A stretch of 13,007 bases of DNA, taken from the UHGV virus genome UHGV-0203085. One strand, written 5' to 3'. This document shows, piece after piece, positions 6,714 to 11,535 of the stretch. The notes under the pieces were generated by a model. That model worked only from the letters and a program-made list of their open reading frames with translations. It ran no database searches and was not told the origin of the DNA. This DNA comes from a virus. Every line of letters starts with the position of its first letter. The first letter of the stretch is position 1. Position numbers and translations under genes: made by a program.

Positions 6714-7964
6714 TTAAAGTGCGAAAGTCACCGGGATGTTGATTACTGGTTTAACCACCGGCATCTCATAAACTACAGGATAGCCGAGAGCATCCGCCAT
6801 ATGGTCGATGATGCCGTCTTTAGCTGGCTCTCCGTTATCGTCGTATGCCTGCTGCTCCAGCGTCTTCGCTATCTCAGGGCATAAGTGGTCGTTAACCCAC
6901 AGCTTACCTTTTTCCAGTGCGGTATTCACGGCTAAAACACGGTCTTTAACCGGAGGGTTGGCGGATTTAGCGCGAACATCGAACCCGGCCTGCTGGAGTA
7001 ATGCAATATCAGAGATTGACGCTGAGTTGGTTTTGCGGTTCTTGCCGCTGGCGTCAGGGTAGACGACAATACGGTGTCCTTGCGACTTCCACTTCTCGTT
7101 AATTACACGCACGGTGTCCGGCGTATCGAACAGGCCTTTCAGTTCTGCTACCGCGTGCCAGCCGTCTTTACGTTGCACATACACGGCGCTTGCGTTCTTC
7201 GTAACGTTGAAGTCCTGCCCGATGTACAGTGTGTCACCAGGTTGAATTGTCTCTTTGCTGCGGTGCTTACGTCGGTCATAGGCGTAATACACGCTGCCGG
7301 ATGTCAGGTTGACGAACTCACCATTAAGATACGCGTTAATCAGTTGCGCCGGGTAAGTCTCGGTCAGTGAGCTGATGTAATCCTGCGGCAGGAATCGCGC
7401 ATTCTCGTGTGTGGAAGCCTGCACCATCGAGTAACTCGGCGTCGGATTCTCTTTGAACTTGGCGTAGACGAACTTGAACCCTTCCGGCGTCGTGGTGACA
7501 GAGATGTGGTTAATTACACCTGGTATAACCAGACGCATACGGGCTACGATTTTGTTCCACGCCAGCTCAGCTTTCTCGCGGCTCAATACGTCCAGCTCAT
7601 CCACGACCGCAGCCGCGATTTTGAAGCCGACTATCGAGCCGGGGTTATCCATCGAGCGGCAGATAACAGTTCCGAGCACCGTCTTACCGCGAGTAACCAC
7701 GACTTCTTTGTCGCCGGATTTAACCAGCACATCAAGGCCGAGGAGGTTAGCCGCTTCCTCGAATGTAGGGTAGAAGATGTCGCGGATAGCCGGGTATGTC
7801 GGACCGAAGTAGCCCAGGCGCGTACCTGGGTGCTTGAGTATAAACGTAAGCAGGTCCAGGCAGCCAACAAATGTCTTACCACTACCGAAGCCCCCGACAT
7901 AGGCCTTGTATTTGTTATCGCAATTCAGGAACAGTGCCTGTGGTGCGGATAGCTGAATACTCAT
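6714..7964 (-). CDS. terL: terminase large subunit, 416 aa
   Basis: Walker A ATPase motif YVGGFGSGKT near the N-terminus (residues about 23-32); ATG 7962-7964 overlaps the stop of the upstream gene (ATGA); followed by the portal gene. Confidence 0.85.
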   Translation of the reverse strand: MSIQLSAPQALFLNCDNKYKAYVGGFGSGKTFVGCLDLLTFILKHPGTRLGYFGPTYPAIRDIFYPTFEEAANLLGLDVLVKSGDKEVVVTRGKTVLGTVICRSMDNPGSIVGFKIAAAVVDELDVLSREKAELAWNKIVARMRLVIPGVINHISVTTTPEGFKFVYAKFKENPTPSYSMVQASTHENARFLPQDYISSLTETYPAQLINAYLNGEFVNLTSGSVYYAYDRRKHRSKETIQPGDTLYIGQDFNVTKNASAVYVQRKDGWHAVAELKGLFDTPDTVRVINEKWKSQGHRIVVYPDASGKNRKTNSASISDIALLQQAGFDVRAKSANPPVKDRVLAVNTALEKGKLWVNDHLCPEIAKTLEQQAYDDNGEPAKDGIIDHMADALGYPVVYEMPVVKPVINIPVTFAL

Positions 7965-8506
7965 TCCTCCACCTCGCCCATGTTCGTTGTTACGATTTTA
8001 CCTACAGGCTCCGCAACACTGAAAATAATCTCAGTAGGTGCTGTTTCTTCTGTCGATTCAACTGGTTTCTCTTTTCCGAGGCCCAGCTTCGCGGCAGCAA
8101 ACGTAGCGGAGATGCCAGCGGCCCCCGTCTCGGTGAAATAGGCCTCTTCCAGAGCCTGTGCTGTCTCCCAGGCTTCTGCAAATGCGGGAATCTCGCGCAG
8201 CCACAGCTTAATAATCGGGATAGTGACGCCGATGTGTAGAGCAAAGCGGGCCAGTGATGGTGGCTTATCCTGAATCAGCGGGCGTTCATCGCCCTTAGAC
8301 GTAGGCACAAGCTCCCACGACGTGCGGTCGAAGAACTCGATTAATTCGTCGCAATAGTCCGGGTCCCACAACGCGGCGGAATTACGGGATGATTGATAAA
8401 GGCTCTGTTTACCGCGCGGTCGTCTACGGCGACGGTTTGCGCTAACAGCTTCTTCATGTGCAGCTTGCACCACCTCTGGCGATGGCTGCTTGAGTTTCAG
8501 CTTCAT
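7961..8506 (-). CDS. terS: terminase small subunit (putative), about 181 aa
   Basis: Immediately upstream of and translationally coupled to terL. Best start is ATG 8504-8506 with AAGGGGA 4-5 nt upstream (track ORF starts at GTG 8545). Basic N-terminal region (RRRRRPRGK) and a helical core are consistent with a small terminase; assignment is mainly by position. Confidence 0.5.
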   Translation of the reverse strand: MKLKLKQPSPEVVQAAHEEAVSANRRRRRPRGKQSLYQSSRNSAALWDPDYCDELIEFFDRTSWELVPTSKGDERPLIQDKPPSLARFALHIGVTIPIIKLWLREIPAFAEAWETAQALEEAYFTETGAAGISATFAAAKLGLGKEKPVESTEETAPTEIIFSVAEPVGKIVTTNMGEVEE

Positions 8507-8523
8507 AGAATCCCCTTGCATAT

Positions 8524-8579
8524 GCGTCTGACCATCAGAGCGCACCAGACGCGCCCTACGCGTCTAAATGGATTATATA
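8524..8579 (-). promoter_or_regulatory. terS leader: TATATAAT box (no -35) followed by two mutually exclusive GC-rich hairpins
   Basis: Minus strand reads cccttaTATATAATccatttAGACGCGtagggCGCGTCTGgtgcgctctgatggtCAGACGCatatgcaaggggattctATG. The heptamer GCGTCTG/CAGACGC occurs at plus 8524-8530, 8546-8552 and 8559-8565, allowing hairpin 8547-8565 or hairpin 8524-8552. Confidence 0.3.
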
Positions 8580-8600
8580 AGGGGATTGGGAGGGATGTAC

Positions 8601-8623
8601 AGAAAAGCCCTCCGTAGAGGGCT
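8601..8623 (-). terminator. intrinsic terminator for the minus-strand operon (stem AGCCCTC / GAGGGCT, loop CGTA, then UUUUCU)
   Basis: 7-bp stem at 8606-8612 and 8617-8623; on the minus strand it is followed by TTTTCT (plus 8600-8605). Located after the last small minus-strand ORF and before the terS leader. Confidence 0.55.
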
Positions 8624-8725
8624 TGTATCAGTTATATAGGCCGTGTCGTGGTGCTCTCTTACCGTCGCCGCCGTAATGGTCATTAGCTACGGCGATAGCC
8701 CAGGCGTTAGGGATGATTAGTAGTC

Positions 8726-8905
8726 TCATTTTAAGTATCTCAACAGGGCATCAGCGATACCCGATGTTACCAGGCCAAAAAACATAGGCCACCAGATGTA
8801 TCTGGGTAGATTGGTAAATGTTTCTGGCTTAGACCAGAAAGCCATTAAAAACGCGAACCAAAACACCATATAACTAATGTTGCTAAGTAATTCTAAAATA
8901 CTCAT
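8726..8905 (-). CDS. small hydrophobic membrane protein, 59 aa (not in track)
   Basis: ATG 8903-8905 overlaps the TGA of the upstream gene (ATGA); AGAGGAGA 7 nt upstream; translation MSILELLSNISYMVFWFAFLMAFWSKPETFTNLPRYIWWPMFFGLVTSGIADALLRYLK has two hydrophobic segments. Confidence 0.4.
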   Translation of the reverse strand: MSILELLSNISYMVFWFAFLMAFWSKPETFTNLPRYIWWPMFFGLVTSGIADALLRYLK

Positions 8906-9138
8906 TCCCCGCTCTCCTCTTTAGCAATGCGTTGCTCAGTTTTAGTGATACCCCGGCGCGTGAATAACACCGGGCTTGTTTTAACGTGCGTCATCAGACG
9001 GTTGTTATAAATTACATGACGCTCGCAATCAACGTCTTTGCTGTACTTGGCAATCGTCATTTCGTTGATGCCGGTTTGTCTGCATGTCTCCGCCATCGTG
9101 CCATATTCTTTTATCAGGTTCGGAATGCTGGTAATCAT
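8902..9138 (-). CDS. small HTH DNA-binding protein (putative regulator), about 78 aa
   Basis: ATG 9136-9138 overlaps the TGA of the upstream 56-aa ORF (track ORF starts at GTG 9162); helix-turn-helix-like segment MAETCRQTGINEMTIAKYSK. Confidence 0.5.
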   Translation of the reverse strand: MITSIPNLIKEYGTMAETCRQTGINEMTIAKYSKDVDCERHVIYNNRLMTHVKTSPVLFTRRGITKTEQRIAKEESGE

Positions 9139-9305
9139 CCTAAGAAATTCCTCGTTGTCCACATCGCATTAGGATATTTGCTATCGCGGTCCTGCACTAC
9201 GGCAATCATGTTACCGCGTTGCACCAGGCAGAAGTGCCGCTGTTGCTCGCCGTTATAGCGACGCCAGATTGCTTCTTCGATTGCTGCATTGATGTCACTA
9301 AACAT
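9135..9305 (-). CDS. hypothetical small protein, 56 aa (not in track)
   Basis: ATG 9303-9305 with GGGG 5 nt upstream; translation MFSDINAAIEEAIWRRYNGEQQRHFCLVQRGNMIAVVQDRDSKYPNAMWTTRNFLG; stop coupled to the next ATG. Confidence 0.35.
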   Translation of the reverse strand: MFSDINAAIEEAIWRRYNGEQQRHFCLVQRGNMIAVVQDRDSKYPNAMWTTRNFLG

Positions 9306-9388
9306 GTTTACCCCACAGAAACCCGACTAACAGCCCAAGGAAGTAACTAAGAACAACCAGACCGATAACCACCTCTGGACTCATACTC

Positions 9389-9571
9389 TCACCCCACTAT
9401 CTCATCGCCAAGCCACGCCGTCTCACGTATATCGTCAACCACACATGCGGCGTGCTCACGGCTAATTGCAAAAATGTAGAAGCTGAACTTCTTCCCGTCG
9501 GCGTCGATGTGGTTAACCGAGTAAGGCTTCCACAGGACGCCATCAATTACTACTGGCTCAGGCGCTTTCAT
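9389..9571 (-). CDS. hypothetical protein, about 60 aa
   Basis: Track ORF 9389..9580 (GTG start); the internal ATG 9569-9571 is the more likely start; protein-like sequence. Confidence 0.4.
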   Translation of the reverse strand: MKAPEPVVIDGVLWKPYSVNHIDADGKKFSFYIFAISREHAACVVDDIRETAWLGDEIVG

Positions 9572-9761
9572 CGTCAACACCGTAATCGAACTCAGGGGAA
9601 AGGAGTAGCTTCTGTTCTTCTTCCTTCAATTTCCCGAGTAACAACTTAAACGCCTCCAGTTGAAACTCTCCGTTAATCGACAACTGCCCGCCTAACGTCT
9701 GTTTCTCTGACTCAAGCACCAGAATACGACGCTCAAGTGATGCGATTGTGATTTTAGGCAT
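9558..9761 (-). CDS. hypothetical coiled-coil-like protein, about 67 aa
   Basis: Track ORF 9558..9770 (GTG start); ATG 9759-9761 with AGGTGG 4 nt upstream is the more likely start; LERRILVLESEKQTL...KLKEEEQKLL looks helical. Confidence 0.4.
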   Translation of the reverse strand: MPKITIASLERRILVLESEKQTLGGQLSINGEFQLEAFKLLLGKLKEEEQKLLLSPEFDYGVDDESA

Positions 9762-9939
9762 TGTCACCACCTTTGTTCAGGTTGAAGCGGTTAATCAGTT
9801 CACGGCGGGTCTCATAAAGCGACTCAACCATCTGCTCAGCTACCGCGATTTTAGTATTAAGGACGTACATCACGTGTCCGATGTCTACGCCGCTGTTAAC
9901 GGCCTCTACCATCATCTTTTCGTATTCGCGGTCAGTCAT
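9754..9939 (-). CDS. hypothetical protein, 61 aa
   Basis: ATG 9937-9939 overlaps the TGA of the upstream ORF (ATGA); protein-like sequence. Confidence 0.45.
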   Translation of the reverse strand: MTDREYEKMMVEAVNSGVDIGHVMYVLNTKIAVAEQMVESLYETRRELINRFNLNKGGDNA

Positions 9940-10094
9940 TCTTTACGCTCTCCCCACATGCGATTGAGATACTTGTTCTTGTCCGGCCCCGGGAAACTGT
10001 TACGTTTCATCAGCTCCTCACGTGTCGGGAACGGGGTGTGACTGACTTTACGGCCTACTCGTAATGGTTGGCTTACTGGACCTTGTTCGCTCAT
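9936..10094 (-). CDS. hypothetical small protein, 52 aa (not in track)
   Basis: ATG 10092-10094 with AGGAGA 7 nt upstream and an ATGA overlap with the upstream stop; translation MSEQGPVSQPLRVGRKVSHTPFPTREELMKRNSFPGPDKNKYLNRMWGERKE. Confidence 0.35.
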   Translation of the reverse strand: MSEQGPVSQPLRVGRKVSHTPFPTREELMKRNSFPGPDKNKYLNRMWGERKE

Positions 10095-10240
10095 TTCTTC
10101 TCTCCTGCATAAGCTGCTTTCAGTGCCTTCATCGCCGCAGCCCAGAACGAGTCTGCAGGAATGCTTCCACCCATGTTACTAACGGCGATGCGTGCCATCA
10201 GTTGCGCGTCATTAAATGCTTCGATATCTGTGATTTTCAT
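10091..10240 (-). CDS. hypothetical small protein, 49 aa (not in track)
   Basis: ATG 10238-10240 with GGAGA 7 nt upstream; translation MKITDIEAFNDAQLMARIAVSNMGGSIPADSFWAAAMKALKAAYAGEKK; the RBS context GGAGAGAAGAAATG is repeated at the next gene. Confidence 0.35.
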   Translation of the reverse strand: MKITDIEAFNDAQLMARIAVSNMGGSIPADSFWAAAMKALKAAYAGEKK

Positions 10241-10394
10241 TTCTTCTCTCCACATTTGCACGGTTTAAGCCCATTTTTGTAGTAGAAGGCGTCGCCACCT
10301 TCTTTCAACCATCCGTTTTGATGCTTGTCGCGACAAGTTATTATGTTCTTGTATAAAATATCTAATTCTTGTCTGCTAAGTTCACTTTTTGGTT

Positions 10395-10616
10395 TCACAC
10401 ATATTCCTCCATAAAATCTTTAATACTTACTTTCTTTCCGCAAGTAAGATAGTTAATAACCGCCTGCTCAGCCATCTCAAATGTCCACCCGCGGTCAAAC
10501 ATAATAGTTTGCATATAACTAGATTTAACCTCAGACGCTATAAGAGCTTTAACTTTTTTAACAGTCCATTTCTTATTTACTAAGGAGGCGTATTTACTTA
10601 TGTCTTCTACTTTCAT
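10395..10616 (-). CDS. hypothetical protein, 73 aa
   Basis: ATG 10614-10616 with GGAG about 9 nt upstream; first gene downstream of the sigma70-like promoter at 10650-10678. Confidence 0.5.
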   Translation of the reverse strand: MKVEDISKYASLVNKKWTVKKVKALIASEVKSSYMQTIMFDRGWTFEMAEQAVINYLTCGKKVSIKDFMEEYV

Positions 10617-10649
10617 TTTCTCTACTCCGTTCTCGTTGTCGATGAAGTA

Positions 10650-10678
10650 AATATAATAGGGTCGTAGGTAATAGTCAA
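10650..10678 (-). promoter_or_regulatory. sigma70-like promoter (minus): TTGACT, 17 nt, TATATT
   Basis: Minus-strand -35 TTGACT (plus 10673-10678) and -10 TATATT (plus 10650-10655) with a 17-nt spacer; located between the terminator at 10700-10732 and the ATG at 10616. Confidence 0.4.
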
Positions 10679-10699
10679 CTAGTCATTGCAGAAAATAGA

Positions 10700-10732
10700 T
10701 AAAAAAAATCCCGGCTGGGTCAGGGCCGGGAT
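10700..10732 (-). terminator. strong intrinsic terminator for the lysis operon (8-bp stem ATCCCGGC / GCCGGGAT then eight U)
   Basis: Stem at 10708-10715 and 10725-10732 with a 9-nt loop; on the minus strand it is followed by TTTTTTTT (plus 10700-10707); 65 nt downstream of the lysozyme stop. Confidence 0.65.
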
Positions 10733-10796
10733 AAAACTGGAGAGCAGAGGGATGGAACAGGAGGTTATTTAAGTATCGTCGGATTAGTCTTAGGTG

Positions 10797-11285
10797 TCAA
10801 CCTTTCACCGCACGCCCGATAGCCTCAGCCTCCTGCCACGGTTTACCGTCGAACAGCGCCAGACGACCGGCGGTACGGCGGCGCAGGCCAAGCAACGGTT
10901 TGCCGTTCTGGTTGATGAACCGCGCCAGCTTAGCCCGCAGCGTCGCAATATCGCCCGAGCGCAACGCCTTACCTGTTCCGGTAGTAGCGGCAATCACACC
11001 CGCGCCTGCGTTATAGACCAGGTCGCACACTGCATCGAACTGTGCTTGTGTCAGTGAATGGTTCGCTGCTGCGTCAACCGCGGCTACGGCCTTAGCCATA
11101 TCGCGATTCAGTAACAGGAGACCTTGGCCTGGGGTGATGGTCTTGCCTGGAGTTACATCTGGCCCGTAATGACCGTAACCAATAGTCAGGTACTTCTCGT
11201 TCGGTGTAGCACGATACACAGTTCCACGGAATCCCTCAAACGCGGCGGTAAAATGCAATCCATTATCTGAAATATTTCGAGACAC
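10797..11285 (-). CDS. endolysin, GH24 phage lysozyme (P22 gp19-like), about 162 aa
   Basis: Motifs ISDNGLHFTAAFEGFRGTVYRA...YLTIGYGHY...GKTITPGQ...LTQAQFDAVCDLVYNAGAG...GLRRRTAGRLALF follow the P22-type lysozyme pattern from memory. The likely start is GTG 11283-11285 with GGAGGG 7 nt upstream; the track ORF extends further upstream without an RBS. Confidence 0.8.
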   Translation of the reverse strand: MSRNISDNGLHFTAAFEGFRGTVYRATPNEKYLTIGYGHYGPDVTPGKTITPGQGLLLLNRDMAKAVAAVDAAANHSLTQAQFDAVCDLVYNAGAGVIAATTGTGKALRSGDIATLRAKLARFINQNGKPLLGLRRRTAGRLALFDGKPWQEAEAIGRAVKG

Positions 11286-11535
11286 GCTTATTCCCTCCGT
11301 ATGACAGCCACGCCTGGCGAATCTGGCGTAGCGCAACTAATGTGATTAACGTCTCAGGCAACGTGGGTGACATGCTGCCCTGTAACAGGTGGATACATCC
11401 GGCGGCGCAGACAATAGCGGTCAGGATATAGAGCACCCGACCAAATAGCCCGTCGTCAACGCTGGGATGATACACATTAAACAGCGATGTCCCCCCGATT
11501 GCCAGCATACCGCCGAACCAGAATAACTCATTCAT
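11263..11535 (-). CDS. second holin-like membrane protein, 90 aa (holin or antiholin candidate)
   Basis: ATG 11533-11535 overlaps the end of the upstream holin gene (ATGAATGA); two hydrophobic segments (FWFGGMLAIGGTSLF and VLYILTAIVCAAGCIHLL) and a basic C-terminus; the track ORF 11263..11715 is an N-terminally over-extended version. Confidence 0.45.
   Translation of the reverse strand: MNELFWFGGMLAIGGTSLFNVYHPSVDDGLFGRVLYILTAIVCAAGCIHLLQGSMSPTLPETLITLVALRQIRQAWLSYGGNKRVSKYFR

Follow-up and report, generated by a model that had tools for sequence, protein, structure and literature searches.

The twelve small genes between the endolysin gene and the terminase small subunit gene (terS) of virus genome UHGV-0203085, studied in a 13,007-nucleotide (nt) stretch (the window, to whose full length all positions refer), most probably form a self-contained transcription unit in which a conserved backbone carries swappable accessory cassettes and the genes are translationally coupled, a reading to which we give a probability of about 0.8. 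The twelve minus-strand open reading frames (ORFs), from 10616 to 8628, tile 1,989 nt, and all of them are real protein-coding genes under purifying selection. In the order in which the unit would be transcribed, promoter P2 is followed by a conserved 5' untranslated region (UTR), the twelve genes and an intrinsic terminator, as listed below with protein lengths in amino acids (aa).

10650..10678, minus strand: P2, sigma70-type promoter TTGACT-17-TATATT, the predicted promoter of the micro-ORF operon
10617..10643, minus strand: conserved 5' UTR with Shine-Dalgarno sequence (ACGGAGTAGAGAAaATG); the next gene varies between phages
10395..10616, minus strand: A73, 73 aa, cassette gene with 35% guanine plus cytosine (GC), matching no family
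10237..10398, minus strand: B53, 53 aa, GTG start, cassette gene
10091..10240, minus strand: C49, 49 aa, core gene, phrog_2180
9936..10094, minus strand: D52, 52 aa, core gene, DUF2737 (PF10930)
9754..9939, minus strand: E61, 61 aa, helical, core gene, phrog_1402
9558..9761, minus strand: F67, 67 aa, coiled-coil-like, phrog_9023, with a conserved N-terminal and a variable C-terminal half
9389..9571, minus strand: G60, 60 aa, core gene, phrog_10509
9298..9384, minus strand: H28, 28 aa (MSPEVVIGLVVLSYFLGLLVGFLWGKHV), optional cassette, predicted single-pass membrane microprotein
9135..9305, minus strand: I56, 56 aa, core gene, phrog_5407
8902..9138, minus strand: J78, 78 aa, core gene, NinH-like helix-turn-helix (HTH) protein, phrog_268
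8726..8905, minus strand: K59, 59 aa, 38% GC, optional cassette, predicted membrane protein, phrog_10956
8628..8729, minus strand: L33, 33 aa, soluble microprotein, last gene before the terminator, phrog_32259
8597..8624 (hairpin 8605..8624), minus strand: predicted intrinsic terminator of the operon, AGCCCUCU-ACGG-AGGGCU then UUUUCUGU

Organisation of the gene chain

Consecutive genes overlap at ten of the eleven junctions, seven times by 4 nt (ATGA or GTGA), twice by 8 nt and once by 14 nt, and the remaining junction is a 4-nt gap. Across 36 genomes, 254 of 320 junctions in the small-gene array overlap, 149 of them by 4 nt. Shine-Dalgarno sequences of several genes are encoded in the final codons of the preceding gene, and one such junction sequence, GGAGAGAAGAAATGA (encoding ...GEKK and the stop), is present twice, at the B53/C49 and C49/D52 junctions. 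The start codons chosen here yield genes as long as those annotated in relatives (150, 159, 186, 171 and 237 nt). With stops and starts that overlap or nearly abut on one strand, a single promoter and a single terminator, the array has the makeup of an operon.

A preliminary description of this stretch had reported minus-strand ORFs of 49, 52, 61, 67, 60, 28, 56, 78 and 59 aa, each of which was recovered at the coordinates given for it, whereas its final ORF, described as 34 aa at 8625..8729, is actually a 33-aa ORF at 8628..8729. The head-to-tail packing of at least ten ORFs that it proposed is borne out and goes beyond chance, but the range it assigned to the chain omits the first two genes, A73 and B53. 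Its count of five ORFs under a 60-aa cut-off has to be raised to seven of the twelve, or six of the ten that it had claimed.

Selection on the small genes

Purifying selection was assessed as the ratio of nonsynonymous to synonymous differences per site (pN/pS), calculated by the Nei-Gojobori method over all unique alleles in 35 relatives (32 IMG/VR and three GenBank genomes). The values are lowest for I56 (0.07), G60 (0.09), J78 (0.10) and L33 (0.13), followed by H28 (0.22), D52 (0.23), E61 (0.35), C49 (0.45), K59 (0.51) and F67 (0.52). For the shortest gene, H28, a frame test on 12 same-register alleles returned a pN/pS of 0.17 in its own frame versus 1.04 and 2.32 in the other two, so that H28 is under clear protein-level selection.

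Neither A73 nor B53 has a counterpart among the 35 relatives or in 50,697 phage records, searched both as DNA and by tblastn. Homologues of both were recovered from a collection of 5.8 billion proteins: eight for A73, all of 73 aa and 71-100% identical, and two for B53, which keep its Cys/His/Cys/Cys pattern and sit in other phage contexts. Comparison of A73 with its homologue in an unrelated 48-kb phage contig, at 69% nucleotide identity, yielded a pN/pS of 0.18. A73 is also 100% identical to an entry titled 'MAG TPA: hypothetical protein [Caudoviricetes sp.]', so the window is probably that of a metagenome-assembled phage.

It is very improbable that any of the micro-ORFs is a chance frame in non-coding or decaying DNA. 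Short ORFs do arise easily, and two further frames examined here are indeed spurious: a 36-aa ORF at 8573..8683, rejected for a pN/pS of 0.54, the lack of third-position bias and its course across the terminator, and a 26-codon TTG frame over the region of promoter-like element P1 (described below), which is interrupted both in the window and in Jerseyvirus. Set against this, all twelve genes have intact, length-conserved homologues and frame-specific purifying selection, which is why they are considered real, and nine of them (all except A73, B53 and H28) belong to PHROG families of unknown function. The micro-ORFs are therefore genuine and conserved, as had been proposed, with selection acting in their own frames and homologues intact in relatives or metagenomes; a check across relatives for disrupted frames found none.

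Conserved backbone and exchangeable cassettes

The backbone consists of C49, D52, E61, G60, I56 and J78 together with the N-terminal half of F67, and the cassettes in the window are A73, B53, H28, K59 and L33. BLASTN coverage separates the two groups: C49, D52, E61, G60, I56 and J78 are covered in 31-35 of the 35 relatives, F67 in 18-34, L33 in 26, H28 in 17, K59 in 10, and A73 and B53 in none. C49 is present in 34 relatives, and I56 is full length in the same number. Homologues of F67 range from 31 to 99 aa, those of K59 share 30-86% identity with the window protein in the 10 relatives that have it, and L33 holds its position behind differing upstream genes. GC content is 35-38% for A73, B53 and K59 versus 46-52% for the other nine genes, consistent with recent import of these three.

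Fixed slots contain a gene-sized cassette, lack it or contain another in its place, and homology breaks off within about 10 nt of start codons. High-scoring segment pairs end within 10 nt of the start codon of A73 in 32 cases, of C49 in 29, of D52 in 28, of K59 in 23, of H28 in 20 and of L33 in 14. Clustering of the tiled ORFs from the 36 genomes placed more than 40 small-protein families in the variable slots. The slot between G60 and I56 occurs in four forms: empty, with a 23-nt junction reusing GGGGTGAG...ATG; occupied by H28; occupied by an 82-86-aa coiled-coil protein with a C-terminal membrane anchor; or occupied by a 76-aa protein, with or without H28. The 76-aa protein we take, from its sequence, to resemble an ASCH/DUF3850 domain. 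These alternative cassettes were located in relatives L012, L015, L021 and L026 and in L020, L027, L031, L033 and L034, with L027 carrying an internally deleted 34-aa version in the H28 slot. The final residues of the 82-86-aa coiled-coil cassette resemble the C-terminus of H28 in the window.

Metagenomic gene calls include natural in-frame fusions in which the last 38 residues of G60 follow the N-terminus of C49, E61 or F67, and this suggests that the 38-residue segment is a selected functional core. The sequences P0024, P0031, P0034 and P0036 are in-frame deletion fusions that end in these conserved residues (DGKKFSFYIFAISREHAACVVDDIRETAWLG).

Genomic context and regulatory elements

The phage of the window is a Kagunavirus-like (Guernseyvirinae) siphophage. 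Megablast of positions 8500..10700 against the 50,697 phage records returned 369 matching records, all of Guernseyvirinae siphophages of the genera Kagunavirus (of Escherichia) and Jerseyvirus (of Salmonella), at 88-92% identity. The best coverage of the query by a single record was at most 79%, and the region is therefore mosaic. In EF2-1, Golestan and NTEC3 the lysis cassette (two holins and an endolysin) and terS flank the matching stretch, in which one gene annotated as 'NinH family protein' and one as 'DUF2737 family protein' accompany nine to ten labelled 'hypothetical protein'. The endolysin gene, the twelve small genes and terS of the window are all on the minus strand, and the flanking features are as follows.

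10797..11336, minus strand: endolysin, PF00959
10772..10800, minus strand: P1, promoter-like TTGACA-17-GATACT, overlapping the endolysin stop codon, with 10 of 12 consensus matches
10700..10766, minus strand: pyrimidine-rich stretch (CCUCCUG, CAUCCCUCU), U-rich tract, hairpin 10708..10732 and U8, recognised by folding and conservation
8572..8601, minus strand: P3, promoter-like TGTACA-18-TATAAT, before terS and directly past the operon terminator, conserved
7964..8506, minus strand: terS, phrog_3064

The approximately 190 nt from the endolysin stop to the first micro-ORF are near-invariant in Kagunavirus and about 75-79% identical in Jerseyvirus, and the block is present in 445 phage records (Guernseyvirinae). 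Within it, the hexamers of P1 and P2 are invariant across both genera while the spacers vary, and P1 is retained even where the upstream lysis gene differs. Downstream of the operon, the 8-bp, GC-rich hairpin at 8605..8624 with its U-rich tail has a folding free energy of -15.4 kcal/mol (z-score -4.7). This terminator is identical in nearly all relatives, is kept in all relatives with terS, and directly follows whichever gene is last. The GenBank record of the Jerseyvirus PVP-SE2 annotates an equivalent layout of a terminator, a promoter, six small ORFs and a rho-independent terminator. The sigma70-like promoter near 10650 and the terminator near 8610 named in the preliminary description do bound the chain, being conserved and annotated in PVP-SE2.

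The element at 10700..10766 begins, directly after P1, with about 35 nt of conserved, unstructured, pyrimidine-rich sequence. Its hairpin at 10708..10732 (-13.8 kcal/mol, z-score -3.3) has 8 pairs, including one covarying pair (UA:9/CG:8) and one G-U pair. The element would terminate transcription of the lysis cassette and from P1; this assignment and that of the operon terminator were made on folding, conservation and the independent PVP-SE2 annotation. It is also a candidate for an RNA of 65-70 nt with the layout of an Hfq-type small RNA (sRNA), or for an attenuated leader like lambda pR'/tR'. No Rfam family scored above threshold within 8400..10900. Pairing of the P1 RNA with the ribosome-binding sites of the chain was considered and rejected, the duplex energies being no better than those of shuffled seeds (z-scores -1.1 to +1.4).

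The terS leader (region 8530..8601, minus strand) contains a palindrome, AGACGCG-TAGG-GCGCGTCT, identical in almost all relatives, whose folding is unexceptional (z-score -1.4). Its role may be that of an operator, an RNA structure or a piece of the packaging signal.

The NinH-like protein and others

J78 shares 35% identity with lambda NinH over 51 residues (BLASTP, E-value 3e-10) and matches phrog_268 with an E-value of 1.7e-30, in agreement with the HTH protein of 78 aa reported before. It keeps the lambda NinH residues T32, K35, H45 and H55, and S29 is replaced by N, as in Fis N84. Lambda NinH itself is a nucleoid-associated protein of Fis-like type; it forms dimers, bends DNA, becomes toxic on overproduction and needs its residues N18, R30, T32, K35, H45, H55 and R56 for DNA binding (PMC7166090). 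J78 falls below the Pfam threshold and is changed at N18, R30 and R56, and for these reasons it is termed a NinH-like HTH protein and not a verified member of NinH. NCBIfam and a sequence search of the PDB gave no match for J78, and its single-sequence AlphaFold2 model (predicted local distance difference test score, pLDDT, 50.8) is too poor to use.

D52 belongs to DUF2737 (PF10930), scoring 38.9 bits against a cut-off of 25, and has homologues in 550 phage records, including lambdoid phages. Some records name it a 'NinZ/nin-region' gene, a label rejected here since the DUF2737 gene of HK75 adjoins abc2 in the early-left (pL) operon; the term 'DUF2737' was not met in the literature search. G60 is modelled as a small beta3-alpha-beta protein (AlphaFold2 mean pLDDT 84.5), for which a significant structural neighbour was not found. 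The C22/H26/C47/C49 pattern of B53, kept by its two homologues as CRDKHQNGWLKEGGD...PCKC, makes a zinc-binding mini-protein possible.

Expression timing and possible roles

A tentative, rather doubtful alternative is that the chain encodes early microproteins for host takeover, superinfection exclusion or anti-defence, transcribed from P2 at once after infection, with the cassettes as counter-defence genes in an arms race and the HTH protein as an Aca-like regulator. Aca proteins regulate anti-CRISPR operons, and a host-type promoter such as P2 would allow early expression of the operon. The search for anti-defence functions returned nothing in PADLOC or NCBIfam for any chain protein, and no match by sequence or fold to a characterised anti-defence protein was found. 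Because the named family matches are limited to NinH-like and DUF2737, the roles in host takeover, superinfection exclusion and anti-defence suggested in the preliminary description remain conjecture.

The term 'early region' used there is likewise not established, as the unit lies between endolysin and terS and RNA sequencing of Kagunavirus K1B4 placed the NinH gene among 42 'middle' genes, along with lysozyme and capsid, and four genes as early, in a coarse classification of 57 annotated ORFs (PMC12645636). The supplementary tables of that study give no per-gene temporal classes for the genes neighbouring NinH (PMC12645636). The BASEL study reports that restriction-modification systems act strongly on Kagunavirus phages and that sensitivity to Old varies among them (PMC11990801), and a broad anti-restriction role of the conserved backbone is therefore unlikely. 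A genome-reduction study (PMC9825161) was set aside, as it concerns Skatevirus and Ackermannviridae phages and has no bearing on the locus.

Predicted membrane peptides and the lysis genes

The claim that the chain includes predicted membrane peptides is supported: H28 and K59 are strongly hydrophobic, with maximum Kyte-Doolittle values (19-residue window) of 2.66 and 1.66, respectively, and in the K59 family two hydrophobic segments reach threshold. H28 comprises one hydrophobic helix with an interfacial FLWGK and a basic C-terminal anchor, and measures 27-32 aa in relatives. Its 14 nucleotide alleles all retain G8, G17xxxG21xxxG25 and F-x-W-G-K/R. Glycine-zipper motifs suggest helix-helix packing, and H28 is most likely a real single-pass membrane microprotein acting by glycine-zipper packing of its helix, with itself or with a membrane partner. 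Matches to H28 occur in 63 phage records; in a 40-record sample an annotated coding sequence overlaps it in five (four distinct phages), and one of these five is mislabelled 'Major capsid protein'. An in-frame H28-I56 fusion in some relatives was considered and rejected, as the frame differs and I56 has a GTG start.

In relatives L009 and L021 a 30-aa ORF, MTEIDFILLSIGVGAVVGAFWGAIDAFRKG, lies directly past the endolysin stop, fused to the lysis cassette at its end. Its product combines an acidic N-terminus with a GxxxGxxxG zipper and an FWG motif resembling that of H28, and may represent a second family of similar membrane microproteins in a different slot.

The position and the membrane peptides raise the question of whether the chain serves the late modules that flank it, with H28 and K59 modulating lysis as antiholin, spanin or disruptin substitutes and J78 aiding terminase at the packaging site, much as IHF bends DNA and assists recognition at lambda cos. 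The chain does lie directly between endolysin and terS, and a spanin (Rz/Rz1 or u-spanin) is not annotated beside the two holins and endolysin in the lysis cassettes of three Kagunavirus records (L001-L003). The K59 family has two hydrophobic segments and a holin-like size and layout, the 30-aa glycine-zipper peptide directly follows the endolysin in two relatives, and the NinH gene of K1B4 is co-expressed with lysozyme and structural genes. Nevertheless, this explanation is unlikely. H28 is missing in about half of the relatives and K59 in 25 of 35, so neither can be essential for lysis; with its own promoter and a conserved terminator on either side, the operon is insulated from its neighbours; K59 is without the charged C-terminal tail of holins; and the searches gave no homologue among holins, spanins or terminase accessory factors. 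As a class II holin or pinholin, K59 was rejected in its own right, since besides its two segments it has a C-terminus of only LRYLK, occurs in only 10 of 35 relatives, is encoded 1.9 kb past the endolysin on the far side of a terminator, and matches no holin family.

Proposed mode of expression and significance

The self-contained, modular unit favoured here would operate as follows. One consensus promoter, read by host RNA polymerase, would express all of the genes, including J78 and L33 with their poor ribosome-binding sites, and ribosomes ending one gene would re-initiate on the next. The short conserved junctions, each a ribosome-binding site plus ATG, may act as recombination points at which cassettes are exchanged. 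The backbone would supply a conserved function that includes a Fis/NinH-type DNA-binding protein, and the optional cassettes would be dispensable accessory proteins adapting the phage to particular hosts, probably as conditionally useful host-interaction factors.

Several points weigh against this interpretation. Coupling, promoter use and termination are deduced from sequence and conservation only, a consensus terminator scan listed neither the hairpin at 8605..8624 nor that at 10708..10732, and the dispensability of the cassettes is judged solely by their absence in relatives. No function was found for 10 of the 12 proteins. J78 reaches 26.0 bits against PF06322, below the cut-off of 29.8 (E-value 8.6e-6), and is without three of the seven lambda DNA-binding residues (R30 to E, N18 to T and R56 to V). 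Finally, pN/pS is fairly high for F67, K59 and C49 (0.45-0.52), partly because these families are mosaic.

A more far-reaching version, which we judge improbable, would make the locus the main host-adaptation or counter-defence hotspot of the Guernseyvirinae. H28-type peptides (27-32 aa) would then be a new membrane family, interchangeable with the tail-anchored coiled-coil protein or the ASCH/DUF3850-like protein, that binds a host or prophage membrane protein, for instance to block a membrane-bound defence or superinfection, and the P1 module would be a new sRNA found in more than 400 phages.

For the modular transcription unit itself, the practical gain is one of annotation: the H28 gene is missing from most deposited Kagunavirus annotations and can be added, and spurious overlapping frames can be discarded. 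If the cassettes prove to be host-interaction factors, the locus would offer a compact natural modular library, with more than 40 families in 36 genomes behind one conserved promoter. Kagunavirus genomes are small, at about 41-44 kb, and have been put forward as models attractive to synthetic biology (PMC11990801).

Comparison with known systems

Phage genomes routinely contain clusters of small hypothetical genes whose stops and starts overlap, and the present locus is of an already known kind: its genes are entered as hypothetical proteins in hundreds of genome records, and its frame of promoter and terminators has been annotated at least once. H28 resembles single-pass glycine-zipper microproteins in its length of about 27-32 aa, its one helix, its invariant GxxxGxxxG and its basic C-terminal anchor, but differs from the known ones in being without a sequence relative of known function.

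The locus shares with hyperplastic or moron-rich regions and with acr-aca operons the fixed slots, swaps at gene boundaries, orphan small proteins, a strong promoter and a conserved HTH gene. It departs from them in that no cassette matches a known anti-defence protein, seven backbone genes and not the HTH gene alone are conserved, and operator-like repeats are not demonstrated. Like the lambda nin region (ninB-ninI), it is a run of small, overlapping mosaic genes, in large part probably dispensable, that includes a NinH-like gene. In lambda the nin genes are flanked by replication gene P and antiterminator gene Q and read from pR by antitermination, whereas the locus in the window lies between lysis and packaging genes, outside the location that defines a lambdoid nin region, has its own promoter and terminator, and has only NinH in common with it.

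The closest counterparts are the units of other Guernseyvirinae, namely PVP-SE2 ORF_01-06, Golestan gp69-77 and NTEC3 gp13-21, which have the same position, upstream terminator, promoter, 5' UTR and closing terminator, and the same core genes (DUF2737, NinH-like and others), at 88-92% nucleotide identity over the shared parts. What is new here is the quantified exchange of cassettes at gene starts, the frame-specific evidence for a gene encoding a membrane peptide of 27-32 aa, and two cassettes not previously seen in isolate phages. Unlike these other units, the one in the window begins with A73 and B53, both absent from the 50,697 records, and carries the mostly unannotated H28.

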